DNA from: a virus
DNA length: 64,000 nucleotides
Reading direction: 5' to 3' (one strand)
Virus record (IMG/VR): IMGVR_UViG_3300033146_004128
Location: 123,665-187,664 of that record
The notes beneath the pieces were generated by a model, which was not told the DNA's origin, made no database searches, and saw nothing but the letters and a program-made list of their open reading frames with translations. Position numbers and translations under genes: made by a program. Shown one piece after another: positions 8,090 through 53,381 of the stretch (position 1 is the stretch's first letter; every line of letters begins with the position of its first letter).

Positions 8090-8386
8090 ATGGCAACTAT
8101 ACCAACAAGTGCACCATCAGTTGATGAAACAGGACTGATAGGAGGAGCAGATATAACCATAAATAAGACTGTGCAGGCAGTAAACAAGAATGAGCCAATT
8201 TTTGGAGTTGGATCAGAGAAACTAGTGGGATATGTAGCACTAGAAATGTATGAGCAATATCAGGCAAGCGTAGTAGGTGGCGGCGGTGGCGGCAGCGGAT
8301 ACTCTCTTTTTGAAGGAGAGTCATATGCATCTGGAAAACCATATGTTGTAGCAGAGTCCGTATGGGCAATAGGAGAAGGTATCTAA
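8090..8386 (+). CDS. small hypothetical protein with poly-Gly linker (98 aa)
   Basis: SD aaggag; VVGGGGGGSG; stop overlaps the next ATG. Confidence 0.6.
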   Translation: MATIPTSAPSVDETGLIGGADITINKTVQAVNKNEPIFGVGSEKLVGYVALEMYEQYQASVVGGGGGGSGYSLFEGESYASGKPYVVAESVWAIGEGI

Positions 8387-9015
8387 TGGATACCAGCGTT
8401 TATAGTCCTCTGGTGCAAGAGCATCAGGGAACAATAGACCATTTCCGTAGGCAGTACTCTTCGGAGATACCTCCTGCGGAACTAGACTTAAAGCTTTACA
8501 ACTACTCAAAAGATGCAGAGAGAACTTTCGACAAGTCAAAAAATGCATCATTTAAAACTCATCTAAGCAATCATCTTACGAAACTAAAGAGAGACGTTCA
8601 TCAGTCAGGATCGAATCTTAAAGTTAGTGAGGATGTTGGAATGTCCATAAATAAACTAAGGACATCTGGGGATGAATTTTACATGAGGCACGGAAGAGAG
8701 CCAACCACAAGTGAACTATCAAAGCATACAGGGATGGATCAGAAGTTTGTGTCTAAGTATAGCAAAATGGGATCCATCAAGACTGTAATGACTGACAAGT
8801 TTGAGACTGGTACGAACTATGCATCAATACAAGACCTTCTGCCTAATCTTTCCAAAAAAGAACAGAGGGTTGCTGACACGATAACAAACAGCATGTCAAC
8901 CCCTGAAGCACTTAAGCATACAAAAATGTCTAATGGTGCATTCTACAAAGAGAGAAATAAGCTCAAAGACAGAATGAGAATGGCATACTTAAGAAGCAAT
9001 ACAAAGGAGATGTAG
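8386..9015 (+). CDS. divergent sigma-70 family factor (FliA/WhiG-like, 209 aa)
   Basis: Region-2-like AERTFDKSKNASFKTHL, region-3 HGREPTTSELSKHTGM, region-4 LPNLSKKEQRV...HTH; start taken at the ATG overlapping the previous TAA. Confidence 0.72.
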   Translation: MDTSVYSPLVQEHQGTIDHFRRQYSSEIPPAELDLKLYNYSKDAERTFDKSKNASFKTHLSNHLTKLKRDVHQSGSNLKVSEDVGMSINKLRTSGDEFYMRHGREPTTSELSKHTGMDQKFVSKYSKMGSIKTVMTDKFETGTNYASIQDLLPNLSKKEQRVADTITNSMSTPEALKHTKMSNGAFYKERNKLKDRMRMAYLRSNTKEM

Positions 9016-13101: not shown

Positions 13102-14538
13102 TTATTGTGTTAATACGACTGATTTTGTCATGCCTAATATAAATGCAAGCTCTATTGCCTGCTCTGCAACTGTCTCCGCTACTATGGTTGGATCCAGAGT
13201 TACAACTGAAGAGTCAGATCCTAGACTACCATTTATAATTTTAGATAGCTCTTCTACCGCTCCATCTATGTTCGATCTGCATCCAGACCCCTGCCCCATA
13301 TTTGTGTATGCATATGATGCACCTGGAACAACTCCACCGCTTAGTGACAACTCAAGAGAGTTTATGCAGTCATCAGCCCTATCCTTTCGCTCCGTAACAG
13401 CATTTACTGTGTTCCCGCCAACTATAACTTTTATAAGCTTTTTCTTGAGTATTGACAATATTGTTTTAAACATATCCCTTTCCTCGTCAGATGAGACAGA
13501 CCTCATTTTACCCATGTAGTAATCAGCAAGTCTATCAACATCGTCTTGATTTGACTTGTCCTCACCGGTTATCGTTATCGACTTTCTCTTTACTGATATT
13601 CTTGAGATTTTAGTCATCATCTCAGGTGTAACATCACATATGTCTATTCCGCTAGACTCTCCAACAACTGTTCCATTTATGGCGGTAGAGATTGCCTCTA
13701 TGGCAAGTGATGTGTTTATGGCACTACCACCATCTATGGCAATAGGCAAAAGATTTATTGACACACCGTGATTTATCGATAGAGCTGACAGTGATGTCAT
13801 CGCAAACTGAGGTGCAATAATGACTAGATTCTCAACTCCTGCATTCACACAGGTGGTAATCAGTTCAACAATGTCATCCTCACCACTAACCTCAGATGTA
13901 GACAGTATCACATGCGCATCTTTCAAATCAGAAGTCCTGCTATCTTTATTGTCATAAAAAATTAAGTCTATGATATTACCAGTGAAGTTTATACCGTCAA
14001 CAACATCAACTTTTGTAACACCTCTAACCTGTGGGTCTGCTATAACACCAGATATTCCACTCTCATCTGCTATTTTGAATGCAGATACTATCGCCTCTGC
14101 CAATATCTTATCACCGGCAGTTGAGGTCATTGCTACAGTCATTGCTTCAGGAGAGTCTACGGTTATATCCCTACTGTTTTTCCTTATGTTGTTCTTAACT
14201 GTATCTATGATGTGATCTTTGTGCATGAAGTCTGCACTGTTGAAATTAGCAAGTATCTTATTGGCCAGGACAACTGTGGTGGTGGTTCCGTCCCCTGCCT
14301 TAGATAGTGTGTTCAGAGAAGCTTCTTGTATCACACTTATGATTGCCTGCTCTAGAGGCTCCGTAGATACAAGAGCCCTAATAACAGACACTCCATCTTT
14401 TGTTGCAAGAGACGTGTCTCCGTTGGATAGCACCACAAATCCACCGTTTGGACCATACGTAGACTCAACAAGAGACGACACCTGTTCCATAACATTTCTC
14501 ACAAAATCAGTTGAATTTGGACCGGTTGACTTTATCAT
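13102..14538 (-). CDS. groEL: phage-encoded GroEL-like chaperonin (478 aa, divergent, no GGM tail)
   Basis: STYGPNG, TKDGVSV, AGDGTTT nucleotide-binding motif, KDRADD...GVVPG (D398-equivalent retained). Confidence 0.92.
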   Translation of the reverse strand: MIKSTGPNSTDFVRNVMEQVSSLVESTYGPNGGFVVLSNGDTSLATKDGVSVIRALVSTEPLEQAIISVIQEASLNTLSKAGDGTTTTVVLANKILANFNSADFMHKDHIIDTVKNNIRKNSRDITVDSPEAMTVAMTSTAGDKILAEAIVSAFKIADESGISGVIADPQVRGVTKVDVVDGINFTGNIIDLIFYDNKDSRTSDLKDAHVILSTSEVSGEDDIVELITTCVNAGVENLVIIAPQFAMTSLSALSINHGVSINLLPIAIDGGSAINTSLAIEAISTAINGTVVGESSGIDICDVTPEMMTKISRISVKRKSITITGEDKSNQDDVDRLADYYMGKMRSVSSDEERDMFKTILSILKKKLIKVIVGGNTVNAVTERKDRADDCINSLELSLSGGVVPGASYAYTNMGQGSGCRSNIDGAVEELSKIINGSLGSDSSVVTLDPTIVAETVAEQAIELAFILGMTKSVVLTQ

Positions 14539-14869: not shown

Positions 14870-17800
14870 TTACGTCTTCTTTATATCGGGACCAGGTTTA
14901 TTTAAAGCATCTCTCACTGCTTCAGTTGCCACGGCAATTCTCTCAAGAATTGACTGCGTATTGTCCTTTGACACACCCTTCTCTGTTCTACTTCGACTCA
15001 TGACGCTTGTGTCCTTAGTTATCTTATTCATGGTTCTGTTTATATGAAAGTCTTCGCCGACAGGTGGAGTCACATTGAAGTCTGCGCTAGCCAGATGTTT
15101 TGGAATCCTTGCCTTGTCCGGACCATCAAGCGCCTTGCTGTCCACTCCTTTTTTGTTTTTTTCAGAAGTCTCAATGTCAGCATCTGGAGAGCCACCATCT
15201 CGTGGAGGAAGCCCAAAAGCAGCCCTGTAGTCTGCCTTTGCCTTTGTGCCATCTGGGTAATACCCCTCTGCATTCGCAAAAGCCTTAGTTCTTCCAGTCA
15301 CTACTCCGAACCCATCATCCTTAGGCTCAGGCAACCCAAACGCTTCCCTATAGTTTCCCATTGCCTTTGTGCCATCTGGGTAATACCCCTCTGCATTCGC
15401 AAAAGCCTTAATTCTCCCAATCTCAACCCCAAAATGATCACCTTTTTCTTTACTCATTTGTCCAGGACTTATAAATCTAGCTTGAGACTCAGCTGACCCT
15501 ATAACCTCTTTGTCCCCAGTATTTATTTCATAATTATCATTAGGATGATCCTTTATCCACTCTTTACTATCTATGGAGGGACCCATACTTGCCCTGAGGG
15601 CTTTTTTTGCCAAAGTCCTGATATCTTTATTATGTTCTACTTCAGTGTTCGATACATTTTTGTGTCCAGAACTACCTTCTCCTGACCCTATCCCATAACT
15701 ATCAACTTCACTTCTTTTTGATTTTGATCTTCTTTGAATATACTTAGGTGTAAATTTCTCCCCTTTATATATTACTCTATCCTTGCTCTCGTATTTAGTC
15801 CCTCTAGGCTTAGCATTCTTCTTCGCAACATCAAGCTTATCGCTAGCAACTTTCATTTCTGCAGCCAATTCTGCAGTTCTTTTAGCATCTTCAGCTTTCC
15901 GTGCGCCAATACTAGTTCCAGACTCATCTATATCATTCTTGTCACCAAGCATGGCCATCTTCAGCTTTCGTACATCCTTTCCTTTTCCATATCCTCCAGC
16001 TGTGTACGCATCTTTTTCCTCAGAATATCCACCATCTTTTTTATCATTATAGAACGATATCGACAATCTATCTTTTTTCGCTGTTACTTTGACTCCTCCT
16101 GCATATTGCCCTTGCAAATCTCTCTGTATAGACTCACCAAATTTCTTTGCCTCTTTAGCATCCTTGAACTGAGCAATGGACATATCAAAGGCTTTGCCCT
16201 TTTTGTGTCTCTCCTCATTTTGCTCAGATCCTCCAGTGAGTAGCAGTGTCTTTCCTTTTTTGGAAAGAGCATTTTTAGTTCTCAATAGCATATCGCTAGT
16301 GTCATCTTTTAATCCATCTAGACTAGTTCCTCCAAATGTAAGAACTGCACCCTTTCTAACACCTCCTACTTTACTCATATCCCTTCTTCCTGAAGGCATA
16401 GGGACATTATCTTTTGGGTCAGCCATGCCCATATTTTTTGGAGGCTTGGCTTGATGGTCAACGGATGTGTTTTTTACTGTCTGGGTTGGCTTTGATGCAG
16501 GAGTTGGTCTATCTTTATCATTATTCATGGTAGCCCATTCATTCTTCTTGCTATTGCCTACATGATCAACCTCAACCTTCTTTCCTTTAGTGGTATGCCT
16601 GTCAGAAGTTTTTATTGCGTCCTTCTTATCAGTATCGCTAGCTACAGGTTCTGCTACTGGAGTCTTTTTGACTGTTGCCCTCTTTGGCGGCACAACTGGC
16701 TCATCAGAAGCATCCCTAGATACAGGAGTCATAGTTTTAGCAGAATCTTCTTTTATCTTCTGAGATAAGCTGTATACTTTATTCACAGATGCAGTAAAGT
16801 CAGTTTCGGCTATGCTTTTTGTGCTTGATCCCTTCCCCTTATCTGTATTCCTGACCAAATCTGCCATTTTTGAATTTATTTGATTCAATATGTTTTCTAT
16901 AGGGTTCTGCCCCTTATTTACAGACCTGTCCTCTATTGTTTTTGCTGTTATGCCAGATGATCCTCTGTCTGCGAATGACTGAGTAAGCAATTCTTCTCCA
17001 GTAACCCCTGCCTCCTTCTTCTTGTCCCCACCTGTTATATTCTCCATGGCCCTAGACAGAACTCTTTCAGTCATGGTCATGTCTTCATATTTCTTTTCTC
17101 CAATAGCATCATACTTTTTACGTATCTCTGCGCCAGACATTCTTGTCATCTTACCTTTTTCCCCAACGTGAAATAGTCCAGCAACACCCATTGCACTAGC
17201 CTGTTTCTCTGAAGAAAGCAGGTTCTCACCGAATAGATGCCTATTTCTTGCATTTTCCAAGCCTATTGTCACTGCTCCTATAGTACTATTTTTGAAATCT
17301 TTCTCTGAAATATCTCCAAGTGCTTTTATTCCTGATAGACTGTCTACCATTTTCTTCTGTTCGGTTGAAAGTTTTTCATACTCATCTTGAGTATCGTTCA
17401 GTATCCCTTGGTCTGCAAGCTTAGAATTACTCTTACCATGTATATTCTTTGCTCTCTTCTTGGCAAGAGAGAATATTTTTGTTCTGTCTTCTTCTCCAAG
17501 CTGTGTCCATTTTACAGCAGCAACAGATGCGTCACCATCCTTAAGTATATCTGCTGCTATATTTCCTTTTGTACCCTTCATGCTGTCTAGATACAGAGAA
17601 CTTATATAGTCGGAGTCCATCGCATCACCTACAGCAAGATTGTCTGCATTTTTTGTAATAGTTCTACCAACAGCCTTAGACGTATCTTGGGCTTCCTGGT
17701 CATCCATATGAAGTGATCTCATAAGATTCTTATATGTAGGCTTTTCGTATGTCTTTGTCATATCTATACCAAGAGTCTCTACTTCTTGCTTTGTTGCATT

Positions 17801-20611
17801 TCCGTTATACCCTATGTTAAATGCAGCTGCGGCAGCTCTTATATCAACACCTGCATGCTTTAATGACTCGGCCTTGATGTGCGCCGCTTCAAAACTATCA
17901 ACGGCTCCTTTGTGTGTACCCTTCCCATACAGTAGGGCATCCGAAAGGAATCCTTTTGCCTGAGATCCAAGTTTTGACAATTTAGGGTCGGAAGCTATAA
18001 ATTTCTCTATTCCCTCTTTTTCACCATACTTAGAAGTACTTTCTTGCAATTTTCCATAGTCAATATCTTTTTCGGCATCTGCAGCTGATATGATAGCCTT
18101 CTGTGCTTTTGTTGCTGATTTTACCATTGTTGTCGTGTCTCGTATCACGTCCTCGCTTTTTGCATTTATTTTATCTCCCATTCCCCAAAAATCATAGAAC
18201 TTATTCGCCATACCATCATGCTCTCCTCTTTCTGCGCTGGCAGCTTGATACATGGAGAATACTGCTGCCTCTCGTGTTGGTTTGAACTTCTTATTGTTTA
18301 GCGTTGCTCCTGCATCCTTGAAGTCATTATCCTTTAGTGTAGAGAAGAATAGGTCCATGTTTGACACAACCTCATCATTTCCAGCCTGTATCTTTTCTGA
18401 GAATGTTTCAAAGTCAATCTTGCCAGATCTGTAGTCCGCAAACGCATTTGTGTTTTTTGTCCTGGCATTACTCTCTGCTCTTTGCATATCGTTTGAGGAC
18501 TTAGCCATAGCCGCAACCTCTTTATGATCAACAGTCGCAAAGCCAAACGCCCCGACAGCTTCCGTTAGCGCATCCCATCCAACTGCTTCAAATGCACCAA
18601 GCATTCCTTTCCCTATATCCTGTCTGTTTATTCCTGCACGTGTGCCTAGACTCTGGAGATTCTTTCTCTCGTCCTCATACTGAGTACTTAGCCCAGGTAG
18701 ATAGTTCGTGAACGATGCCTCTCTGTTTCCAGTGCCAAGCATATCTTTGTACCCATCATCACTAGCAGAATCCATTTTAGCATTTACTTTTGCGAACTCA
18801 AGGCTATTGCCTGCTATTCCGGTAGCTGCCTTTTTCCCAGCCTCTGTAACGGTTCCTACACTTACTCCATTGGATGTTAGCTTCTTTACATCCTGTAGAA
18901 GACCCTCTATAAAACCTCCAAACACTTTTCTTACTGCGGTAAGTCCTGATTCCCACTGCTTCTCAAATGATCCTGAGTCAATAGCTGCACTACGCTGCTC
19001 TAGTTTTTTTGCCTTCTCGACAGATTTCATGACACTTTCATACCCACCGTTGCCTGCTGCACTAAATATAGCCCTTGTCTTACTTGACAAAGTCATTCCT
19101 GAAGCACGGACAAGGTTTCTATCTTGTGTCACTTTAGCCATATAGCCAATTTGTGTCTTTACTGCATCCCATGAGCCAGAATCGTGAAGTGCCCTAGAGT
19201 ACCCCTCTGTCATCTTTTTCATTGCTGCAGGATCCTGCATTAGTATAGAAGCAGTTTCTGTTGTTGTAAGAGCACCGTTCTTGGAGTACGTATCTAATAG
19301 TTCTCCTAGGGTAAATTCCCCATTCTTGTGCCCTTTTTTTACTTTTTCAAATGATTTTTGTATTAGTGAGTCCTGATCTTCACTACTCATTTTCTCGAAC
19401 GCTTTTCTTCCTCCTGCTGACGTGTATGCCTCCCCTATAGCAAGAGCACCATACACATTCTCACTAGCAGCCATATTCTTACTGAATGCAAGTTGAGCCG
19501 TAGGACCAGATGCGAACGTATTATACGCCTTGTTTGCCTGGTCGATAGCTTGTATCTGCTCTTCGTTGTTACCTAGTTTTTTCTGAAGTTCAGGGTCAAG
19601 TTTTATCATATCCATCATTGTTGATTTAGACATAACAGCATCAGCCTTAGATAGCACATTTATTGGATCGTTCGCTTCAGCTTCCTGAAGAAGGTTCCCC
19701 ATTAGATTGCTGGCATCCATTCCGTACTTTCTTGCTGCACTGCCTACTGACCTTGACGCTTCCACAGCAGCTCCGTTTGACAGACCTGTTCCATTTAGTC
19801 TTCGAAGTGTATCCATTATCTCTGAGATGTCAGATCCTCCAAATATCTCAACAAGAGATTTTGCTACGCCTTTAAGGTCTTTTATCTTAGATGTTATGTC
19901 TCCGGTTCCTTGTGCTCCTGATATGTTTCCGGTCTTAATTCCCTCATCCATTATTCGTGTAATCTCCCCCACGCTGAAATATGGATCCTCCGTTGCGGAC
20001 TCTTCCATAGATGAGTACACCTTCTTGCTGTCTGATATACTATATCCGAAGTCAGCACCATATGGACTATCAGTATTTGCAAGCCCCATAAGGCTTCTAT
20101 GTGTCTCAAGTTGCCTACCAGCCCTTTGAGAATACATTTCTCCTAAGCTTCCGCCTATGCCTCCTCCGGCCATACTACCCACCATACTACCAACGAGAGC
20201 ACCAATACCAGGAATAGGTATCATCGCCTGCCCAATCATTGCTCCAAGGGCAGACCCAGCAAATCCTCCGCCTATCTCCATTCCTGTTGATGCCATTGCG
20301 GCAGTAGACCCCTCTCTAAGGTTTGCCATATGGGCTTGGAATGTTGCTCCGTGTGCTCCTGCTGGTTTTGATAGTAGGTTTGTTCTTCCCATCATGAATG
20401 AAGATGTAAAAGGGTTGTCATACATTGGAGAATAAGGAGATGACCACGTACTAGACTGTCCACCCCCATACATATTCTGCATGTTGAAGTTGCTGGATGG
20501 ATTCATGTACCCCTGTGGTCCACCAGACATCATGCCTGGATTAGCAGTAAATCCCTGCCAAGGGCTCATGTGCATATAGCCATTACTTTGTTGCATGTAC
20601 GGATCTAGCAT
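14870..20611 (-). CDS. tape-measure-like protein (1913 aa) with low-complexity C-terminal extension
   Basis: Very long A/K/G/S-rich helical ORF in the tail operon, Gly-rich hydrophobic segment near the N-terminus (GGFAGSALGAMIG...GALVGSMVG), adjacent to baseplate and chaperone genes. Confidence 0.72.
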   Translation of the reverse strand: MLDPYMQQSNGYMHMSPWQGFTANPGMMSGGPQGYMNPSSNFNMQNMYGGGQSSTWSSPYSPMYDNPFTSSFMMGRTNLLSKPAGAHGATFQAHMANLREGSTAAMASTGMEIGGGFAGSALGAMIGQAMIPIPGIGALVGSMVGSMAGGGIGGSLGEMYSQRAGRQLETHRSLMGLANTDSPYGADFGYSISDSKKVYSSMEESATEDPYFSVGEITRIMDEGIKTGNISGAQGTGDITSKIKDLKGVAKSLVEIFGGSDISEIMDTLRRLNGTGLSNGAAVEASRSVGSAARKYGMDASNLMGNLLQEAEANDPINVLSKADAVMSKSTMMDMIKLDPELQKKLGNNEEQIQAIDQANKAYNTFASGPTAQLAFSKNMAASENVYGALAIGEAYTSAGGRKAFEKMSSEDQDSLIQKSFEKVKKGHKNGEFTLGELLDTYSKNGALTTTETASILMQDPAAMKKMTEGYSRALHDSGSWDAVKTQIGYMAKVTQDRNLVRASGMTLSSKTRAIFSAAGNGGYESVMKSVEKAKKLEQRSAAIDSGSFEKQWESGLTAVRKVFGGFIEGLLQDVKKLTSNGVSVGTVTEAGKKAATGIAGNSLEFAKVNAKMDSASDDGYKDMLGTGNREASFTNYLPGLSTQYEDERKNLQSLGTRAGINRQDIGKGMLGAFEAVGWDALTEAVGAFGFATVDHKEVAAMAKSSNDMQRAESNARTKNTNAFADYRSGKIDFETFSEKIQAGNDEVVSNMDLFFSTLKDNDFKDAGATLNNKKFKPTREAAVFSMYQAASAERGEHDGMANKFYDFWGMGDKINAKSEDVIRDTTTMVKSATKAQKAIISAADAEKDIDYGKLQESTSKYGEKEGIEKFIASDPKLSKLGSQAKGFLSDALLYGKGTHKGAVDSFEAAHIKAESLKHAGVDIRAAAAAFNIGYNGNATKQEVETLGIDMTKTYEKPTYKNLMRSLHMDDQEAQDTSKAVGRTITKNADNLAVGDAMDSDYISSLYLDSMKGTKGNIAADILKDGDASVAAVKWTQLGEEDRTKIFSLAKKRAKNIHGKSNSKLADQGILNDTQDEYEKLSTEQKKMVDSLSGIKALGDISEKDFKNSTIGAVTIGLENARNRHLFGENLLSSEKQASAMGVAGLFHVGEKGKMTRMSGAEIRKKYDAIGEKKYEDMTMTERVLSRAMENITGGDKKKEAGVTGEELLTQSFADRGSSGITAKTIEDRSVNKGQNPIENILNQINSKMADLVRNTDKGKGSSTKSIAETDFTASVNKVYSLSQKIKEDSAKTMTPVSRDASDEPVVPPKRATVKKTPVAEPVASDTDKKDAIKTSDRHTTKGKKVEVDHVGNSKKNEWATMNNDKDRPTPASKPTQTVKNTSVDHQAKPPKNMGMADPKDNVPMPSGRRDMSKVGGVRKGAVLTFGGTSLDGLKDDTSDMLLRTKNALSKKGKTLLLTGGSEQNEERHKKGKAFDMSIAQFKDAKEAKKFGESIQRDLQGQYAGGVKVTAKKDRLSISFYNDKKDGGYSEEKDAYTAGGYGKGKDVRKLKMAMLGDKNDIDESGTSIGARKAEDAKRTAELAAEMKVASDKLDVAKKNAKPRGTKYESKDRVIYKGEKFTPKYIQRRSKSKRSEVDSYGIGSGEGSSGHKNVSNTEVEHNKDIRTLAKKALRASMGPSIDSKEWIKDHPNDNYEINTGDKEVIGSAESQARFISPGQMSKEKGDHFGVEIGRIKAFANAEGYYPDGTKAMGNYREAFGLPEPKDDGFGVVTGRTKAFANAEGYYPDGTKAKADYRAAFGLPPRDGGSPDADIETSEKNKKGVDSKALDGPDKARIPKHLASADFNVTPPVGEDFHINRTMNKITKDTSVMSRSRTEKGVSKDNTQSILERIAVATEAVRDALNKPGPDIKKT
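15238..15410. repeat. two perfect 50-bp direct repeats (15238-15287 and 15361-15410), 123 bp apart
   Basis: ttgcctttgtgccatctgggtaatacccctctgcattcgcaaaagcctta twice; encodes KAFANAEGYYPDGTKA. Confidence 0.95.
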
Positions 20612-26588: not shown

Positions 26589-26597
26589 ATTATATCA
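26589..26597 (-). promoter_or_regulatory. extended -10 promoter TG-A-TATAAT
   Basis: Perfect TGnTATAAT in the gap upstream of the 280-aa gene, preceded by a T-run. Confidence 0.65.
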
Positions 26598-34300: not shown

Positions 34301-34946
34301 CTGCATATGATATAACTATGTTTTTTAGAGAATTATCTATTGTCAGCTTTATAATATCAACATTGTCTGATCCTATATTTGGGACGTATCTAGTAATAAA
34401 CGAGTCTATGTTTAATATTCCATCAGGGTCAGACATGCTTGCTGACTCTATCTCTATGAATGGGACTGTAACATCACTACTGCTTTTTGGCATAGCCGAG
34501 CTAGATGATGATATTTCTGCTTTTGTTACAGTGTTTGACGAGTTAAGGTACCCACCAGTAATTGCGCTCTGCTCAACACTTGAAACACTTATATAAGCAT
34601 TCTCCATCTCCTGTTCTATTTTAGATATTGTCCACGCTGGAGACCCGGTTTCTCCATCTACGTATTTTTCTGCAACTATGGTAAGATTGCTACCAATGGT
34701 CCTGAACTCATCGCCATCTGTAAATTGGTTTGAGTCGATCAATTCAAGTACATTTTCGACCCTCGAAGTAATTATCTTTTCTTTCATAGTGCTTACAGCC
34801 TCCATCATATAGTTTCTTTTATCACTAGTTATTTTGTTAATCAAGTTGTCGTACTCGCCAATAAGCGAGTCGACTGCATCATCTACTGATCCCAGAGAAT
34901 AGCCGGAAGCTAAATTCTCCAGTAGCCAATCATTATCGATAGCCAT
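31353..34946 (-). CDS. large acidic virion structural protein (1197 aa)
   Basis: Contains Ig-like inserts of the type seen in sheath/fibre proteins (YTVNVGGVDYTY...DIATGL; ATLAQALTAGINA...ITLVASSPGTSFTV). Confidence 0.55.
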   Translation of the reverse strand: MAIDNDWLLENLASGYSLGSVDDAVDSLIGEYDNLINKITSDKRNYMMEAVSTMKEKIITSRVENVLELIDSNQFTDGDEFRTIGSNLTIVAEKYVDGETGSPAWTISKIEQEMENAYISVSSVEQSAITGGYLNSSNTVTKAEISSSSSAMPKSSSDVTVPFIEIESASMSDPDGILNIDSFITRYVPNIGSDNVDIIKLTIDNSLKNIVISYADVSFIEQDISDGELKGSGSKIADYQEIEASASASLYRDELTVILNYENDYTVNVGGVDYTYSSSSPDTAEDIATGLSDELGADANLSVSLDTGYWSTVFENGAGDKVFGWYAKNSDDSLSYEVEMIVPTEEGDLTIEQDASNPEKILITFEHDGFDPVYPTIADIRDLVNAFQDVDIRVVVMPGFDTGDEYSTADSVQLEIGASKIIIEASSDQTVTVSTLEAEKYEYIHVSDFSAATAQKGTVEIIKFNPDNTYYIEINSTRVEIDPSLQGNEYIVDEATLAQALTAGINADQSDVIASYSSSLITLVASSPGTSFTVSTSGEFNYVTPIDRDTLLRYDLRGLPTIGSESLPQLKKDGGIITNIREPLNNEDINKIVSSGMAFSDSYMMIPQVPTLVDNTNNFVPPVSTVAPRFETIVRSEESRIASASDLVSPARRNFPEAIYPMYATPQAKSNRWFFVEAGANSIAAKSTIGVAVLTISPRDYERLVLQDDTASFSTALENRIPNVGQKYESLYSLLKEDTESYNQVGDVATMPIRLDTFNADDIEEIRRILGNEVLEGFINYALLPQLSENDVDEVYKYLMELAMQIDDGLREQRFIALAGAYVVDASKLSGFYSDDKFADFVFGVNEPEAAPENNYGIGGIPIDATVTMSKLYFRNMRNQALALQSKNYALGTTVTEGQLIFHLTGSIHALTFPESSLYDPPSPSRATFNDGQWLMEGTDVSLGKVISIQIPDDTGIEDRLYGELVRTGFFSTNVDLALNHSPNGYSKKYNESVLALLTDAIEIADDGSIVSINSARVYLQSFYQSFDSLSPYELASMMLESSVYSGEADQDESIYSPLITVFLKVLLYFIENKDSIAYDDWEENFNKIIGLIFEADEFADEILPYSVFVSWVGHIGAHNSFTWKDDIVTSIRAIHTSSDLGTYISNSISKIEYMAGLASGGGGIPLGATPVNNPTLTWGTEEIDGKVVSTLLIEEG

Positions 34947-36742
34947 TAGTTTTCCTCTAGTGTCTCTAGTCTAGTAAATATATCTGCCATCTTTTGCTTA
35001 TAGTCAGCATTTAAGGCACGCACTGTCTCTGATGTTTTTTTAGATAAATCCGAAACAGTCTGAACTGCATCTGAAATATCAATTACCATCTCTGCTGCTT
35101 TTGTATGTAGCAATGCAGTATCCATGTCTCTATACACTACTTCAGGAGGAAGCAATGAGGCATCTAGCTCATCAGTTACCTCTGCATAGTGAAGAGTGAA
35201 GTCTTTCGCATTTCTGATGTATAGTGCCACTCTACCTGCGCTATATCCAGTCTCTTCGATAGACAAGTGTTTGAACGGTGCATCTTGTGCAAAGTCCCCA
35301 TTTATCTTTCTGAATCTTAGAGTTTTTCCGAATGGGCCAAATGATATAATCATCTCATACTTTTCATTCTCGTCAGACGTGATAAACGACTCAGATACAG
35401 GCATATGTCCAGTAGCGGTATAAGGATTGTAGTCTGAACCCTTAAGGTCAAAACACATGTCTCCTCCATTGTCGACTTTTGCAAGTATTGCGCCTTTTAT
35501 TGCACCACGTATCCCTGTAAAGACAGTGTCGTATCCATCTCTACCTACTATAATAGGCTCAACTGATCCATCTGCAGCAGTGTATTTGTGGTACGTTTGA
35601 TCAAGTGAATCATTCTGTATTCCGCCCATGATGTTTATGCCTGTAATATCTCTAAGCATAGGGAACATGTCGTATGTATCATCTGACGATGAGGTACTTC
35701 TTGAGTCACCAATCTTGTTCCCAACTATATCATCAAGATATGCAGGTGCCGTACCAACAACAACAATACTTCTGTCTTTCAGTACAACAATAGAGAATGT
35801 CTCCCCTGCAATAACATCAATAGGCTGAGATCCTGCAGGAATAGATGTAACCTCTTCAGTTCCTGAGATACCTGATCCCCACTGATACACCTTGCCATCC
35901 TCGGCAAGCATAACATTTCTGTTGGCGCCTGAGCTAACCTTTAGAGATTTCTGACTAGGAACCGTTGTTCCTGAACCATGAAGTGTTCCATTAAGTTCTG
36001 TTGTTATGAGGTAGTCTTCTCCTGCAGTGATCGCAACTGATACATGGTTGATGCCTGATGTATCAAGAGAGCCTGTTGTCTCTATGGTTCCGTCTCTCTT
36101 GAGAATGGATACAAAGCTTTCGCCTGACGCAATACTGATAGGTCTGTCATTCTCATCAAAGTTAACACATGAGTCTGGTATAGCTATTGTTCCACTATGA
36201 TCATCTCCATACATCTCAACAGCACCACCAACTCTCATCACTACAGTGTATCCATCTCCACACGCAACCATCTCTACTGTCTCTGGAGATAGTATGTCAA
36301 GTTGTCCGTATGTATTGTCTCCTGATGTTCCTATGCATGTTCCTGTCTTGACCACTGAATGAGTGCTTGATGCATCTGCGCCATAGAACTTATCACATTG
36401 ATATTTTGACATAGATAGACAGTCAGGAGCACCTTCACATGAAGAACTGAATGTATCACCCTTCCATTCGACAGATGTTCCGTTATCAACAAGTGCAGCA
36501 AATCTTCCTGCTGCCCCAGCTCCAAATAGACCTGATCGGGCAGCAGTTGTGTACGGAGATGCACTAAACACAAGCCGTACTGACTTGTTCCCAGATGTAA
36601 AATCAAAAGCATCTCTAGATACTATCGCAACATCATAGTCTCCAGACCTTGTATTATCTATAGAGATTCCCCCATCCTGAGTAACTTGAGCCAAGTTACT
36701 ATTCGTGACGAAGTCATTTCCTGTTAAAAGTGTAGAACCCAT
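34946..36742 (-). CDS. RCC1/BLIP-II repeat beta-propeller protein with C-terminal coiled coil (598 aa)
   Basis: Five RCC1-like blades: VACGDGYTVVMRVGG, IASGESFVSILKRDG, ITAGEDYLITTELNG, VSSGANRNVMLAEDG, VIAGETFSIVVLKDR. Confidence 0.72.
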   Translation of the reverse strand: MGSTLLTGNDFVTNSNLAQVTQDGGISIDNTRSGDYDVAIVSRDAFDFTSGNKSVRLVFSASPYTTAARSGLFGAGAAGRFAALVDNGTSVEWKGDTFSSSCEGAPDCLSMSKYQCDKFYGADASSTHSVVKTGTCIGTSGDNTYGQLDILSPETVEMVACGDGYTVVMRVGGAVEMYGDDHSGTIAIPDSCVNFDENDRPISIASGESFVSILKRDGTIETTGSLDTSGINHVSVAITAGEDYLITTELNGTLHGSGTTVPSQKSLKVSSGANRNVMLAEDGKVYQWGSGISGTEEVTSIPAGSQPIDVIAGETFSIVVLKDRSIVVVGTAPAYLDDIVGNKIGDSRSTSSSDDTYDMFPMLRDITGINIMGGIQNDSLDQTYHKYTAADGSVEPIIVGRDGYDTVFTGIRGAIKGAILAKVDNGGDMCFDLKGSDYNPYTATGHMPVSESFITSDENEKYEMIISFGPFGKTLRFRKINGDFAQDAPFKHLSIEETGYSAGRVALYIRNAKDFTLHYAEVTDELDASLLPPEVVYRDMDTALLHTKAAEMVIDISDAVQTVSDLSKKTSETVRALNADYKQKMADIFTRLETLEEN

Positions 36743-38780: not shown

Positions 38781-38789
38781 ATTATAGCA
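38781..38789 (-). promoter_or_regulatory. extended -10 promoter TG-C-TATAAT
   Basis: Perfect TGnTATAAT about 50 nt upstream of the 195-aa gene; part of a 13-bp motif repeated at 54616-54628. Confidence 0.65.
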
Positions 38790-38859: not shown

Positions 38860-39213
38860 TTAAAATCCGAACCAGTTTTTCTTTGGCTCTTCTTCTTTTT
38901 TTTCTATATTAACTGATGCTGGTTCCCATTTGTTATAGGTATCCATTATTGCACTTAGCGTCTTTACCTGGTATTTTCTTTCCACCAGTTCATTGGTCAT
39001 AGCCTTGAATACCTTAGGGGAGAGAACTATGTTTCCATTTTCTTTTCTGCCATCAATTCTTATGTGGCTATTTGTATTGAACTTTGGATATACCAACTCA
39101 GGGTTTGGAACCACTACTACTGGTGCAGGGCATGTCCCAAAGCATCCAGAAAGCAGTAATGATGTAGCTACACTAAATAATAATAGTGAAGTCTTCGCCT
39201 TCTTTGATCTCAT
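38860..39213 (-). CDS. outer-membrane spanin (o-spanin) lipoprotein (117 aa)
   Basis: Signal peptide with lipobox LLLSG-C, Pro-rich after the Cys; start overlaps the i-spanin 3' end. Confidence 0.72.
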   Translation of the reverse strand: MRSKKAKTSLLLFSVATSLLLSGCFGTCPAPVVVVPNPELVYPKFNTNSHIRIDGRKENGNIVLSPKVFKAMTNELVERKYQVKTLSAIMDTYNKWEPASVNIEKKEEEPKKNWFGF

Positions 39214-39478
39214 CTATCTTCTCCTGTATTTGTTTTACTTTCTCTTTGGCTATAGTGCTATTCTGAACAACAGTTTTTGCAACATCTTTGTGTAGATTTG
39301 CTTTCGCCCTGCTTATCTGTGACACCTTCTCCGCAGCAGCAACTTTGCCCTCAGCAGTTTTTATCTCTGTGTCCATGTTCTTTATCTTGTAATGCTGTCC
39401 TCTAGCATACAAACCGAGTGCTCCAACTATCGCTGTCAATATCCCTACTATGTATGTCATAATCTCTGCTGTGATCAT
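39173..39478 (-). CDS. inner-membrane spanin (i-spanin) (101 aa)
   Basis: Single N-terminal TM helix followed by a coiled coil; directly upstream of the lipoprotein. Confidence 0.68.
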   Translation of the reverse strand: MITAEIMTYIVGILTAIVGALGLYARGQHYKIKNMDTEIKTAEGKVAAAEKVSQISRAKANLHKDVAKTVVQNSTIAKEKVKQIQEKIDEIKEGEDFTIII

Positions 39479-39738
39479 TATACGTCTCCTGCTTCCGGTT
39501 CTCTAACCTTTGATCTTAACGATCTGCTTGTAACGAATCTAAGCATTGTTCCCACTGTAGCTATTGACACCATGAATAGTCCAAAAGCCTGATCAGAGGT
39601 GAACATTCCTCTTAGAAATCCTGAGTATGCCTCTATTGCTCCAGAGAGCCCAAGTATAAAGTTAAATATCAATGTTTTACTTGATGACAAGTATTCCCAA
39701 GATATTTTAACCGGTCCTAAAAAATAAGTTTCTATCAT
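39478..39738 (-). CDS. putative holin (86 aa, two hydrophobic helices)
   Basis: Start re-assigned after SD aaagga; LIFNFILGLSGAI and AFGLFMVSIATVGTML segments, basic C-terminus; precedes the spanins. Confidence 0.6.
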   Translation of the reverse strand: MIETYFLGPVKISWEYLSSSKTLIFNFILGLSGAIEAYSGFLRGMFTSDQAFGLFMVSIATVGTMLRFVTSRSLRSKVREPEAGDV

Positions 39739-39751
39739 GTTTTTTCCTTTG

Positions 39752-41494
39752 TTATAATATGCCAAGGGCAAACTTTGCCCTATCCGAACGTATGTCTTTG
39801 GTGTCTTCTTTCTTTCCAAATAGAAGCCCCTCAGTCAATCCTTTTTTTATGCCCCTGTAGTTTATCTGTTGCCACATAGACTTACCTGTCATTGGTCTTT
39901 GCTCATATGTCTTAAAGACTGGTTGATAGTCAAGAGGACCATGAGACACCTTTACTGACCCAACACCATTTCTCTTCAGGTATCCTGCAACTTTTTTAGT
40001 TATCTGCTTTCCTGGGCTGAAATGTAGAGCTGGCTCAGCAAGGTACTTTTTTGTTATCTGCTTGTCTCCAGTGCTCATAATTTTCATATGTGTTCCTGCC
40101 AATGTAGGAACAAAGCTATCGAATGTCTTTAAATCCGTGTTGGACTTATCGCTTTTAGCCTTAACCAGATTTAGATATCCACGACTAACAACTTCAAAGT
40201 TTCTCTTATCTATAGTACCATTATTTGCCTTATCAAGAGCATCAACAAGATACTTTCTTCCCTCTACTATTCCTCTGTGGTTTACTATATCCTTTGTTGA
40301 GGCAAGTCCATTTGTTACAATGTCCCCACGATCAACCATAGCCCCCACTGCAACAGTTGGAGCCACATGGTGAGATGTCGCATGATCAACTCCTCCAATA
40401 TTTATGTTGTACCCACCGGTTGTGAGTTTACTTATAGAATTTACCTTGCCACCAATAGTAGCTACTGTTGCCTTCCCATTGAACTTGTCTGTAGAGTTTA
40501 ATAGTATCTTGGCTGCCTGGAACCCAGAAGGTATCTTCGATGCAGTCTTTCCAGCAACGTTATGCTTTGCACTTAGTATCAACTGTGTAGACTTCTCTGA
40601 TAATCCTTGTGCGGCTTCTATACCAACATTGTGCCCAATAGTAGGCAAGCTTCCACTTGAATTCTTCCCCATGCACATTGCGCATACGCCATGTTTTGAT
40701 TGGCACGTTATTGGAGATCTTACTTTTATCTTCTTCTTGCCCATAGCTCTAAGTGTCTTCAGATACTGCTCGGTGACAAGTTTATTAGTCCCTGCTTCGT
40801 ATCTACTTAGAGCATCATTACCATCTGTAGGAACAACTATTCCATTCTTTGTTCCGCAGTCTTTCTGGTCTATCTTTACATCTTCGGCATTAGCAATAAG
40901 TACTTTTCCCATTGCTCCAGGCTCAGATGTAGATACAGCTGCCTGAACCGCTGCAAACCTTGCTTGCCCTCCAGAGGCATACTGCTCGTGAGAATTTAGT
41001 CCTGCTGCAAGACTATTTTTTATCATAAAAGGATATGGTTCAGAGTTCATATCTACTGCATACACAACACCACCGGTTATTCTTGATGCAGTGGAAGGAT
41101 TTCCCCTTCCTTTTGACTTTGCTTGAGAAACGAGATTGTTTCCATCATTAACCATTACCATTTCTTGCGTCTTGTTAAAAACATTGATGAGATGCGATTT
41201 CGCCTTCTCTTTGCTCATTCCGTTAAGCTTATTGCCTTCACGATGAAGCATATCATCAATACTTTTCTTGTTCTTTAGTGAGAACTCTGCAGGTCCCATG
41301 TTGTGACCATTTAGATACGCAAGCTCTTCTCCGAGCTCACGTATCTTGTGTATCTTGGAAGCATACATTGCTGGATACTTCTGTGCGTACACAGATAATT
41401 TTGCATTTATCTTGGGCTTAGTCAATGGAGTATCTGACTGGCTGAACTGTATGTCTTTCGGCATAAGCTTGTTTAGCTCAAAGATAGCATCCAT
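39752..41494 (-). CDS. rpoC: DNA-directed RNA polymerase beta-prime subunit, C-terminal half (580 aa)
   Basis: Bridge helix GLNSHEQYASGGQARFAAVQAAVSTSEPG, DCGT, Zn site RSPITC...GVCAMC, trigger loop VGIEAAQGLSEKSTQLILSAKH, IDKRNFEVV; no NADFDGD motif. Confidence 0.9.
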   Translation of the reverse strand: MDAIFELNKLMPKDIQFSQSDTPLTKPKINAKLSVYAQKYPAMYASKIHKIRELGEELAYLNGHNMGPAEFSLKNKKSIDDMLHREGNKLNGMSKEKAKSHLINVFNKTQEMVMVNDGNNLVSQAKSKGRGNPSTASRITGGVVYAVDMNSEPYPFMIKNSLAAGLNSHEQYASGGQARFAAVQAAVSTSEPGAMGKVLIANAEDVKIDQKDCGTKNGIVVPTDGNDALSRYEAGTNKLVTEQYLKTLRAMGKKKIKVRSPITCQSKHGVCAMCMGKNSSGSLPTIGHNVGIEAAQGLSEKSTQLILSAKHNVAGKTASKIPSGFQAAKILLNSTDKFNGKATVATIGGKVNSISKLTTGGYNINIGGVDHATSHHVAPTVAVGAMVDRGDIVTNGLASTKDIVNHRGIVEGRKYLVDALDKANNGTIDKRNFEVVSRGYLNLVKAKSDKSNTDLKTFDSFVPTLAGTHMKIMSTGDKQITKKYLAEPALHFSPGKQITKKVAGYLKRNGVGSVKVSHGPLDYQPVFKTYEQRPMTGKSMWQQINYRGIKKGLTEGLLFGKKEDTKDIRSDRAKFALGIL

Positions 41495-42105: not shown

Positions 42106-43482
42106 CTATAGGGTAATAGCGGACGACCCTGTGCTGTCAACTCTTATCCCTCTTGTTCCGCCTCCAATTATAGCAGAAGACCCTCCAAATACGGTAGCAT
42201 CTTCAGTTGCAGATACAGTAAAGCTTCCCATTACTGATATGGTCATATCTCCTCCCCATGTTAAAGATGGTATCCCCACGCTTCCTCCGCAGTATCCTGG
42301 AGTAGACGAGGATATGTTTATCTCAGGTATTGCTATACTGTCAACGTTTACGTGAACAGCATTTGAATACACTCCTGCATAGTCAGAAGACACAAAGCTC
42401 TTCTTCGCAATTATCCCATGTTCAAGACTGTATGTCTTTTTGTTTGCGGAATACTCAACTACACCGCCATCACTCATTACAATATTCATAGCGAATATTG
42501 AGTACTCTTCTCCATTAAAGAATCCATTTATTTGTAATATGTCACTAGACGCATTACTACATGGTGGTATAGGAACATGTGCTCTTTCGAGATTTCCGGC
42601 TCCAGGCATAAGGAAAAATTCCATACTCTTTATCCTGTTTTCGCCTGCACATCCTCCACAGTATGCATACACGGAGTCAAATGTTCCGTACTTGTCAAAC
42701 ACTTCATGGAAAACAGATTCTTGACCTCTGAATAAAAGCCTTGACCATTGAAAAGTTAAAAGCAACTCTCCTAGGTGAAGGCCAAACATTTTTATGAATG
42801 GATCAGCTTCAAGATCTGCGAATGCCATTTCGTACGTTCTTGATCCACCTTCCTCATCACCACTCATCATGGAAACAACGGACTTTTTTGCAGCCTCTAT
42901 GTCTCCTGCTCCTCCTGCGGACCTTGCTGTTGTTATATCAATTTCTATATGGATACCAGCACTGAAGTTATCTATGACTATTGTGCTTCCATAGAGTGCC
43001 ATAAGGTGAGGAGTTACTATCTCTACCGTGCCATTATCTCTTGCAATAACCTTTGACTCACAGGACGTTGCTATTCCTGCAGCAGTTGGTCCTGCGAAGG
43101 CAATGTTTCCATTACCTGTTTTTACAGAGTCTAATCCTAATTGTGTATCTGCAAAAAAGAATTGTGAAGTTTGTCCATATTTGTCTTCTTGGCCTACGCC
43201 ATTAGCATCGGCTTTACCCTTTGCCGTAGGTTCAGGAACTGTATTCTCTCCGGATATGGCATAGAAGTTTAGGTATCTTTTCAATGATGACAGCTTAGCT
43301 ATTGCTTGAGCAGGATAAATCTGAGGGTAGGACATAGACAAATCAAGAACTACAGCTTGGCCCATCTGTGGAGATATTCCCATATATCTTGGAACGTCTA
43401 TCTCGTTACTGTACTCCGTAAGAACAGTTATTGATGACTCAGTTATACCTGTCACACGTCCGGATATTCGTGATGATGGCAT
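42106..43482 (-). CDS. putative baseplate spike (gpV/gp5-like) protein (458 aa)
   Basis: N-terminal OB-fold-like GRVTGI...PQMGQAVVL; C-terminal beta-helix-like GDMTISVMGSFTVSA. Confidence 0.55.
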   Translation of the reverse strand: MPSSRISGRVTGITESSITVLTEYSNEIDVPRYMGISPQMGQAVVLDLSMSYPQIYPAQAIAKLSSLKRYLNFYAISGENTVPEPTAKGKADANGVGQEDKYGQTSQFFFADTQLGLDSVKTGNGNIAFAGPTAAGIATSCESKVIARDNGTVEIVTPHLMALYGSTIVIDNFSAGIHIEIDITTARSAGGAGDIEAAKKSVVSMMSGDEEGGSRTYEMAFADLEADPFIKMFGLHLGELLLTFQWSRLLFRGQESVFHEVFDKYGTFDSVYAYCGGCAGENRIKSMEFFLMPGAGNLERAHVPIPPCSNASSDILQINGFFNGEEYSIFAMNIVMSDGGVVEYSANKKTYSLEHGIIAKKSFVSSDYAGVYSNAVHVNVDSIAIPEINISSSTPGYCGGSVGIPSLTWGGDMTISVMGSFTVSATEDATVFGGSSAIIGGGTRGIRVDSTGSSAITL

Positions 43483-44781
43483 TTAATTCCCCCCTCTATA
43501 AACAACGGCTTCATCACCGTTTGCTCTAACTCCTGTTATATTGTGCGCAAATCCATTATCGACAAGTTCAACATAATACTCAGGAATGTCTTTAGATAAG
43601 CTAAAGCCTCTTCTTGACAGTGTTACGCTTTTACCATCATTGAAATTCACTTTATATTGAGCGTAGTCCTGCTTTCCAAATGCTCTCCTGGCAACCTCTC
43701 CTGGCTTAGCAGCTCTTGAGTCACCATATAGATCCCTTTTGATACCGTCACTACTTAATGCTTTTGCAAACATATTTCTAGCTGCTATCTTCTCAATGAA
43801 CTCATTTGTGTAGTCAAGAGATGTAGCAAACTTAATCATCGAGCATGGTGGGTTAGCCTCGGCCTTCTCGATTAACATTCTAGCAAATATCTCATTATCG
43901 CAATTTTTTGCACAGTCAGCATACTCTTCTTTTGGCATATCCGACCCTATAAACAAGGCCTCTGAAGGTTTTAGTACAAGTCTTTTTGAATGTACAATCT
44001 TAATGATCGCTTCAGGACTCATTCCTCTTCTGAACTTATCCATCTCGTCAACGCTTACGGATGATGGGAGGGTATCTATGGCATCTATATACTTAACCAG
44101 TGTTGCAACTTTTTCATCTATGCTGTATGACTCATCCGATGCAACTTTCTGAAACAATGCATGTCCTTGAGCGTCTGCCGGCTTCCGGACTACTGATATA
44201 TCAAAGAAGTTCATTGGTGGTATATTTATTGCGTATACAACTTGACCATTTGGCTTCTGTCTATGCATCTCGAATTTGAGATGATCACATCTGTTTGCAA
44301 GCGACCCCTTAGTAATTGACCCACAATATGAGCACATTTCCTGAGGAACCTTTACTCCCATAGATACTTTTATCCTTGACCCACTTTCTATGTCAGAATA
44401 TATATCTGGAGCCTTGCTCTTCTTTATCTCAAGTAAAAGCTCTACTCTATGCATATCATCATTGTATATTGCTTTCACAACATTACCTATAGATTTTGAC
44501 GGATCCTTATTGAAATGCTGTATAAATATACCTGCAGACTCAAATGTCTTATAAAACTCTTTCAGGTCTTTTTCATAAAAGAAATCACCATTATTGTTTT
44601 CACCATAATAATCACCTGCACCCATAGCTATAACATGTAGGTATGCATTGTTCTTTTTCTGATCTATTTTATCAAGAAGATTCTCTCCTGCTGTTTTTAT
44701 CATAGGGCAAGATCCACCAAAGCACGAGCTGTGCTCAATTTCCATCTGGTCTACGGTAAAGTCAATTATCTTAGTTAGCAT
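43483..44781 (-). CDS. prohead maturation protease (HK97/herpes assemblin fold) with Zn-finger insert and K-x-A sites (432 aa)
   Basis: His in FIQHFNKD, Ser in KVSMG, CSYC...CDH insert, FFDISVVRKPAD; flanked by MIKTAG, FQKVAS, DEKVAT, MIKFAT, IEKIAA. Confidence 0.82.
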   Translation of the reverse strand: MLTKIIDFTVDQMEIEHSSCFGGSCPMIKTAGENLLDKIDQKKNNAYLHVIAMGAGDYYGENNNGDFFYEKDLKEFYKTFESAGIFIQHFNKDPSKSIGNVVKAIYNDDMHRVELLLEIKKSKAPDIYSDIESGSRIKVSMGVKVPQEMCSYCGSITKGSLANRCDHLKFEMHRQKPNGQVVYAINIPPMNFFDISVVRKPADAQGHALFQKVASDESYSIDEKVATLVKYIDAIDTLPSSVSVDEMDKFRRGMSPEAIIKIVHSKRLVLKPSEALFIGSDMPKEEYADCAKNCDNEIFARMLIEKAEANPPCSMIKFATSLDYTNEFIEKIAARNMFAKALSSDGIKRDLYGDSRAAKPGEVARRAFGKQDYAQYKVNFNDGKSVTLSRRGFSLSKDIPEYYVELVDNGFAHNITGVRANGDEAVVYRGGN

Positions 44782-53372: not shown

Positions 53373-53381
53373 TGATATAAT
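53373..53381 (+). promoter_or_regulatory. extended -10 promoter TG-A-TATAAT for HNH-amidase (divergent from the tRNA promoter)
   Basis: Perfect TGnTATAAT 17 nt upstream of the HNH ATG. Confidence 0.6.

Follow-up and report, generated by a model that had tools for sequence, protein, structure and literature searches.

Jumbo phages of the phiKZ and AR9 type encode two bacterial-type RNA polymerases (RNAPs), one of them virion-packaged, each built without alpha or omega from four to five polypeptides in which beta as well as beta-prime is split. In both the virion (vRNAP) and the non-virion (nvRNAP) enzyme, the cut in beta-prime follows the catalytic double-psi barrel and is reported to fall where cyanobacterial beta-prime is divided into RpoC1 (gamma) and RpoC2 (PMC7598289), a pair also present in plastids. 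An RNAP has also been reported for the cultured Salmonella phage Arash (OQ632216; PMC10585845), whose record labels gp206 'beta subunit' and whose description lists 'beta' and 'beta-prime' proteins with no mention of a fusion or split. Here we analyze a 64,000-nucleotide stretch of viral DNA (hereafter the window; bases 123665-187664 of IMG/VR record IMGVR_UViG_3300033146_004128), taken from a 187,664-bp genome with direct terminal repeats that CheckV rates 100% complete. The window contains a gene for a stand-alone 580-residue C-terminal half of beta-prime (beta-prime C), and the same genome encodes beta fused to the N-terminal half of beta-prime (beta-prime-N) in a second polypeptide. We put at roughly 85% the probability that the 580-residue protein is the beta-prime C module of the phage's own two-polypeptide bacterial-type RNAP, probably packaged in the virion. 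This enzyme shares with those of phiKZ and AR9 the lack of alpha and omega and a beta-prime cut after the double-psi barrel, and differs from them in being the one detected enzyme of its phage and in having a whole beta that is fused to beta-prime-N.

The gene was first recognized in an original prediction that read the window from its sequence alone and placed an open reading frame (ORF) for a beta-prime C-terminal half at 39752-41494. The ORF exists and encodes 580 amino acids (aa), but it lies on the minus strand; the plus-strand frame at 39752-41494 has stops throughout. The gene and the parts of its product are, in window coordinates:

39752..41494, minus strand: beta-prime C-terminal subunit gene (P0001, 580 aa, ATG start), assigned from the ORF, Pfam and PDB sequence matches, and fold
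41150..41494, minus strand: N-terminal helical region (residues 1-115), beginning at the beta-prime split point in the structure alignment
40886..40993, minus strand: bridge helix (residues 168-203), a long helix in the model, aligned with E. coli beta-prime ~770-805
40673..40858, minus strand: Zn-binding site formed by C213 (DCGT) and C264, C271 and C274 (RSPITC...GVCAMC), from alignment to E. coli
40499..40627, minus strand: trigger loop and its helices (residues 290-332), with K310-H311 invariant and no SI3-type insertion, from alignments

Pfam RNA_pol_Rpb1_5 (PF04998) matches residues 165-338 with 53.2 bits (cut-off 28.5), a six-frame search adds a second stretch for 55.1 bits combined, and phmmer against PDB sequences returns Firmicute beta-prime chains at E 1e-26. 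The landmarks named in the original prediction were all located in the protein, including the bridge-helix segment GGQARFAAVQAAVSTSEPGAMGKVLIANAEDV (residues 175-206), DCGT (residues 212-215), the Zn-binding segment RSPITCQSKHGVCAMC (residues 259-274) that spans RSPITC...GVCAMC, and the trigger-loop SAKH (residues 308-311) that ends in AKH; the N-terminal strings are LTKPKINAKLSVYAQKY (residues 24-40) and IRELGEELAYLNGHNMG (residues 51-67). The protein contains no NADxDGD motif, in agreement with the claim that the NADFDGD catalytic loop is missing. Its four cysteines, at positions 213, 264, 271 and 274, align by BLASTP with E. coli beta-prime C814, C888, C895 and C898, and the same alignment pairs TQLILSAKH with E. 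coli TQLTMRTFH and sets H311 on H936. Because the alignment then leaps from E. coli ~937 to ~1117, SI3 is missing from the trigger loop. When 33 members of the family are aligned (alignment A1), the four Zn-binding cysteines prove nearly invariant, and K310 and H311 invariant. The 580-aa ORF is a genuine beta-prime C-terminal module, with homology far above chance.

Structure prediction likewise yields a beta-prime C-terminal fold, which the original prediction had named as a check on its reading. An AlphaFold2 model computed from alignment A1 has a mean predicted local distance difference test score (pLDDT) of 84 and a predicted template modeling score (pTM) of 0.71, and comparison with solved beta-prime chains (VIA-align) aligns 494-520 of the 580 residues with Z 25-28.5 and a root-mean-square deviation of 4.4-5.8 Å. 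Model residues 1..580 correspond to residues 561-1174 of S. aureus, 666-1258 of M. smegmatis, 573-1356 of E. coli and 876-1471 of T. thermophilus beta-prime. For RpoC2 chains (Z 26-27.5), residues 6..1229 of Syn7942 RpoC2 (9dvs_F) correspond to model residues 12..580 and residues 1..1216 of Synechocystis RpoC2 (8gzh_Z) to model residues 13..580. Because the RpoC2 chains align from their first residues, the phage protein starts within ~12 residues of the RpoC2 start, in a comparison that uses first aligned residues only and fixes the split site to a precision of ~10 residues. Model residues 12-13 thus meet RpoC2 residues 1-6, and the N-terminus lies at the rpoC1/rpoC2 point to which it had been assigned by eye. 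While the two systems divide beta-prime at almost the same position, the phage protein lacks the large trigger-loop insertion of the cyanobacterial chains, which take ~1216-1229 residues for the same core, and the phage layout differs from RpoC1/RpoC2 in that the N-half is fused to beta and ~50 residues before the break have no counterpart. The analysis, whose tree includes no cyanobacterial sequence, gave no sign that one split descends directly from the other.

The beta subunit and the catalytic N-half of beta-prime were expected to lie outside the window, and a hidden Markov model (HMM) search of the remaining genome for Rpb1 and Rpb2 domains had been suggested. This search finds both sets of domains, together with a catalytic NADYDGD motif, in one ORF:

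Genome 90579-94826 (outside the window), plus strand: beta::beta-prime-N fusion gene (P0002, 1415 aa), with Pfam matches Rpb2_3, Rpb2_6, Rpb1_1 and Rpb1_2

Six-frame searches of the genome place Rpb2_6 and Rpb1_2 at one locus each, in the same 1418-codon frame, and NADYDGD at fusion residues 1351-1357 is the sole NADxDGD of the genome. Fusion residues ~58-959 correspond to residues 85-1035 of a 1104-aa cyanobacterial beta, a near full-length match, residues ~1063-1412 correspond to E. coli beta-prime 176-515, and the ~100 unassigned residues between them (960-1062) link the beta and beta-prime parts. The fusion gene and the beta-prime C gene lie 69 kb apart on opposite strands, whereas the two RNAP genes are ~4.8 kb apart in Arash and nearly adjacent in Vibrio phage D181. 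No second RNAP set emerged when the complete genome was searched with Pfam Rpb1_2, Rpb2_6, Rpb1_5 and Rpb1_3, when every ORF of at least 250 aa was screened for DxDxD, or when ten large ORFs without assignment at genome 87-124 kb were compared with Pfam and PHROG; alpha and omega have no matches in the genome. The proposal of a multisubunit phage RNAP with partners outside the window therefore holds, but the partner is one beta::beta-prime-N fusion rather than several phiKZ-like pieces, and a single RNAP set is detected in place of a virion and a non-virion pair. The rifampicin resistance-determining region is an established basis for predicting the response of an RNAP to rifampicin. In the fusion, pocket residues change relative to E. 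coli from D516 to E345, H526 to G355, R529 to D358 and S531 to T360, and because these beta residues differ the phage enzyme is predicted to be rifampicin-insensitive.

Together, the two proteins would make up an RNAP core in which the 1415-aa fusion contributes beta and the double-psi barrel with NADYDGD, and the 580-aa protein contributes the funnel helices, the bridge helix, the Zn site, the trigger loop and part of the C-terminal clamp. By analogy with RpoC1 and RpoC2, beta-prime C would dock non-covalently on the fusion at the break and complete the active centre with its bridge helix and trigger loop. The tether from beta to beta-prime may take over part of the role of alpha and omega in assembly.

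Relatives of the two proteins exist in both two-chain and one-chain forms. A search of 1.84 billion representative proteins identified beta-prime C homologues in 697 clusters (clustered at 50% identity, E<1e-30), and architectures were assigned by mapping the best 150 of the 697 on both phage proteins. Stand-alone homologues of beta-prime C, ~50 in number, show 28-83% identity. Among the 150 mapped proteins, ~50 are stand-alone chains of 565-681 aa with a shared N-terminus (query residue 5-7 meets subject residue 8-12), and 18 are single chains of 2008-2587 aa in which beta::beta-prime-N is followed directly by beta-prime C. The others carry insertions or extra domains, including an N-terminal NUDIX domain in P0100 and a C-terminal GNAT acetyltransferase in P0072; an insertion of ~400 aa is seen in ~30 relatives of ~1000 aa. 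In the single-chain protein P0083 (2023 aa), the stretch up to residue 1400 matches the fusion collinearly, and the stretch from residue 1443 onward does the same with the 580-aa ORF. Multiple alignment shows that single-chain forms have a 35-45 aa junction segment, corresponding to E. coli beta-prime ~521-572, that is absent at the cut between the genes of this phage. From this collinearity, the two genes together represent one enzyme minus a short linker.

The beta-prime-N region has 1853 homologues of 778-2477 aa (E<=1e-10), most of them fusions of 1400-1490 aa on contigs of up to ~220 kb. Contigs of 192092, 192328, 153279, 183133 and 165427 bp occur in both homologue lists with close matches to both genes, and the dominance of fusions together with these identical-size contigs indicates that the two-chain layout is common. 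Both two-chain genes thus occur in one genome and are collinear with single-chain relatives, and frequent transitions between one-chain and two-chain forms distinguish this lineage from phiKZ and AR9. We considered an intein as the origin of the split, as the single-chain relative P0078 (2510 aa) contains one with a LAGLIDADG domain (Pfam residues 1406-1821) near the split coordinate; the multiple alignment places this intein inside the catalytic loop, between NADFDG and D and away from the split, and we rejected it as the source of the break. In phage D181, a homing-endonuclease gene interrupts the fusion homologue (L067 1452-6966) exactly between residues 492 and 493 in the numbering of the present phage, an arrangement suggestive of a mobile intron or of a third split within the beta part.

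Both genes sit among virion genes. The beta-prime C gene lies within a long minus-strand block at ~10.2-52.8 kb of the window and starts 16 nt past the stop of a preceding 180-aa ORF. Other features of the window are:

43483..44781, minus strand: head-maturation-protease-like gene, two ORFs upstream of the beta-prime C gene (PHROG 18299, E 6.5e-13)
39478-39819, minus strand: 113-aa ORF with a TTG start from the mechanical ORF list, sharing 68 nt with the 3' end of the beta-prime C gene
39173-39478, minus strand: Rz-like spanin candidate, downstream (PHROG matches, E 4e-7)
34946-36742, minus strand: RCC1-like beta-propeller repeat protein of 598 aa, recognized from its repeats and kept in relatives
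14870-20611, minus strand: 1913-aa ORF with weak similarity (E 1e-4) to Arash gp4, which ranks second in abundance among the virion proteins of Arash
13102-14538, minus strand: GroEL-like chaperonin inside the minus-strand block (PHROG 5725, E 6.5e-57)
8386..9015, plus strand: Sigma70-family-like protein (P0217, 209 aa), a candidate specificity factor homologous to Arash gp10 (blastp 1e-7)
5272-6249, plus strand: major capsid protein (MCP), homologous to that of Arash, with no Pfam match
2832-4418, plus strand: large terminase (TerL), homologous to that of Arash

The protease-like protein is 43% identical to Arash virion protein gp222, and in most related contigs its gene stays within 5-11 kb of beta-prime C, in the distant ones on the same strand. 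Gene order around beta-prime C is preserved in close relatives, including one with 83% identity. In this 83%-identity relative the called gene matching the 113-aa ORF is 87 aa long and has no overlap, so the true start of the 113-aa ORF is probably further downstream. Of the baseplate, protease and lysis genes proposed to flank the beta-prime C gene, protease-like and Rz-like spanin candidates are present; the 'baseplate' and 'lysis cassette' labels have weak support, and no baseplate gene was confirmed, as more than 30 neighboring ORFs scanned with PHROG and Pfam gave almost no family matches. When the 10 kb surrounding the gene were compared by megablast with 50,697 phage records, no match was returned.

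The candidate specificity factor P0217 matches Pfam Sigma70_r3 with 23.5 bits, just below the 25.3 cut-off, and its relatives have a precomputed PF04539 match; thirteen homologues occur on related contigs. A model of P0217 has pLDDT 75, and each of the ~50 listed Foldseek PDB rows is either a sigma factor or an RNAP complex that contains one (E 7e-4 to 0.06), with template modeling (TM) scores of 0.23-0.28 that are as low as expected for a flexible three-domain protein. Sigma70_r2 had no match in a search of the genome. Jumbo phages of the phiKZ and AR9 type, in contrast, have been reported to lack a sigma factor (PMC7824862).

Arash provides the closest view of such an enzyme in a virion; Vibrio phages D181, D148 and D69 also count among the nearest known systems. 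Like the present phage, it has a stand-alone ~600-aa beta-prime C (gp216) with the same N-terminus (HMM positions 4-577), and its ~1500-aa gp206 aligns full-length with the fusion at 29% identity. Portal, MCP, TerL, protease-like and sigma-like genes are shared between the two phages, whose genomes are ~180-188 kb; identity is ~30%, and a helicase gene that directly follows beta-prime C in Arash has no homologue found in this phage. Spectral counts for Arash virions place gp206 first among the detected proteins, with 3516 spectra, and gp216 in fifth position, with 1210, while 467 spectra come from the 'sigma factor' gp10 (PMC10585845). By analogy, the RNAP of this phage is probably virion-packaged. 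The packaged enzyme would be injected and would transcribe early genes, possibly with the sigma-like protein of the window, and an N4-like scheme is plausible in which injected phage RNAP serves early genes and host RNAP late genes.

Several observations weigh against this interpretation. To account for these enzymes in their particle preparations, the Arash authors consider both a part in early transcription and a co-purification of abundant enzymes (PMC10585845), and the case for packaging is drawn from the proteome of a relative at ~30% identity. Sequence alignment does not find the first ~175 residues of beta-prime, including the N-terminal Zn finger, in the fusion. The two halves are also not flush at the split site, as the fusion stops at E. 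coli ~521 and the 580-aa protein begins at ~573, leaving ~50 residues of bacterial beta-prime (E. coli ~521-572) without a counterpart in either protein. The presumed late operon would be read from a few markers (protease-like, spanin-like, TerL and MCP). K-mer counts in upstream regions gave no phage-RNAP promoter motif, and the host-type extended -10 TGnTATAAT is not enriched in the window, with 7 found and 4.7 expected. Among the k-mers, GCTATAATA lies upstream of genes in 6 of its 7 genome copies and ATATGGTATA in 5 of 6. A sigma70-type promoter scan gave 54 sites against 50.7 expected, and terminators numbered 10 against 9.6 expected.

The alternative that best survives these comparisons retains the same two-chain RNAP but leaves it unpackaged, so that the enzyme is made during infection for middle or late genes, as are the nvRNAPs of phiKZ and AR9, and host RNAP reads the early ones. 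Host-type extended -10 motifs upstream of several genes would fit host RNAP transcribing part of the genome: TGnTATAAT is found in intergenic gaps or just upstream of starts at 26589-26597 (minus), 38781-38789 (minus), 42167-42175 (minus) and 53373-53381 (plus) of the window, and once 31 nt before the start of the fusion gene (genome 90548), yet the motif occurs without statistical enrichment. Because there is only one RNAP set, the phage would have no division of labor between a vRNAP and an nvRNAP, which is also compatible with an unpackaged enzyme. Carry-over of abundant enzymes, as raised for Arash, is however hard to invoke for subunits that rank among the top five proteins by spectra, above or near the major capsid protein, and both RNAP genes lie among virion genes, with beta-prime C linked to the prohead-protease-like gene even in distant relatives. 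We regard an unpackaged enzyme as unlikely, while granting it a real share of the probability.

Far less probable is a lone half-subunit that binds or modifies host RNAP and has no phage partner, a case that the original prediction had raised in the event that the other subunits were absent from the genome. The matching fusion gene is present in the same complete genome, relatives hold both parts in one chain, and the two genes co-occur on related contigs. Nothing was found in favor of this reading, which arose because the window itself has no gene for beta or beta-prime-N, and we reject it as very improbable.

Phylogenetic analysis further separates the 580-aa protein from bacterial sequences. 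We constructed an unrooted maximum-likelihood tree, which carries no direction, from 39 sequences over the first 319 aligned columns (LG+C20). It takes in stand-alone, single-chain and beta-prime-only phage forms, the phages Arash, Vibrio phage D181, AR9, Madawaska, YerA41 and IME392, and, for bacteria, E. coli, an Enterococcus sequence and six proteins from bacterial metagenome-assembled genomes (MAGs). The phylogeny suggested at the outset thereby covers bacterial RpoC and AR9; neither cyanobacterial nor phiKZ sequences are in the tree. The bacterial sequences are set apart by a branch with support 96/59, and the 580-aa ORF lies outside the bacterial clade, grouped at 100/100 with P0005, P0070 and P0071. 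This group belongs to a wider clade (88/85) of stand-alone forms only that includes Arash and D181, and AR9 and Madawaska stand apart on a long branch of their own. Two changes suffice on the tree to explain the stand-alone state, which may be of single origin. Scores from the family HMM place this family nearer to bacterial beta-prime (100-212 bits) than to the AR9-type proteins AR9 gp154 and Madawaska gp141 (72-74 bits), with YerA41 and IME392 at ~120 bits. A recent, decaying capture of a host rpoC fragment has next to no likelihood: the solved structures that match best in sequence are beta-prime chains of bacteria, but identity to bacterial beta-prime is 20-26%, the frame is intact, a large phage family shares the size and N-terminus with functional residues invariant, and the tree position is outside the bacterial clade.

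A 36%-identity relative of beta-prime C is encoded on a 2.2-kb contig (L059) from a Sulfurimonas sp. single-cell assembly, and one bacterial-genome scan also recovered more distant relatives in one MAG each of Aquifex and Clostridia. There is a weak hint that part of the phage clade infects Campylobacterota. As a pointer to the host of the present phage, the Sulfurimonas relative is too distant and was set aside.

Among other known RNAPs, the rpoB-rpoC fusions of Helicobacter and Wolbachia resemble the phage fusion in the way they join beta, by its C-terminus, to the beta-prime N-terminus. In these bacteria, however, beta-prime is kept whole, and alpha and omega are still used. The RNAP of phage P23-45 is far more diverged from cellular RNAP. 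Together with crAss-like gp66, this tape-measure-fused P23-45 enzyme offers the likeness of two-barrel RNAPs delivered with the virion (PMC10770324). The crAss-like enzyme is also far more diverged from cellular RNAP, and the crAssphage RNAP is undetectable by COG beta/beta-prime HMMs (PMC7481178), whereas the 580-aa protein passes Pfam cut-offs. A resemblance is also found in mReC, the multisubunit-RNAP-encoding Caudovirales of Weinheimer and Aylward (2020), a lineage of uncultured tailed phages whose beta and beta-prime align well to cellular RNAP, contain NADxDGD and fall outside Bacteria (PMC7481178). Neither a beta::beta-prime-N fusion nor a stand-alone beta-prime C gene is described in the mReC paper, which uses 'fused' for crAssphage only (PMC7481178). 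Capsid proteins of mReC match the T4-type family PF07068, whereas the MCP of this phage matches no Pfam family, and the mReC lineage may overlap with the one described here. Phage multisubunit RNAPs with a split beta-prime are already known from phiKZ and AR9, and the partition observed here differs from theirs; literature searches found no description of a two-chain layout of beta::beta-prime-N and beta-prime C.

A bolder proposal, which we hold to be doubtful, is that this phage clade packages a sigma-dependent holoenzyme composed of beta::beta-prime-N, beta-prime C and a minimal sigma70-like factor, and injects it at the start of infection. If true, the packaged holoenzyme would be the first virion RNAP to use a sigma-type initiation factor. 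As a separate part of the proposal, common descent, and not a site that simply tolerates cutting, would explain why beta-prime is divided alike in this clade, in jumbo phages and in cyanobacteria.

For annotation, these results indicate that wherever a phage has a stand-alone beta-prime C gene, the rest of its genome should be examined for a beta::beta-prime-N fusion. The cultured member Arash makes the two-chain enzyme testable, and a minimal two-polypeptide bacterial-type RNAP that dispenses with alpha and omega would be useful for structural and mechanistic work. That this lineage breaks beta-prime where cyanobacteria and jumbo phages do is relevant to the manner and the causes of splitting in large RNAP subunits. 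Phage multisubunit RNAPs have been known mainly from the phiKZ and AR9 type, and the separate lineage defined here, with genomes of ~150-220 kb, appears much larger and has an enzyme nearer to bacterial RNAP that gains inteins and extra domains.

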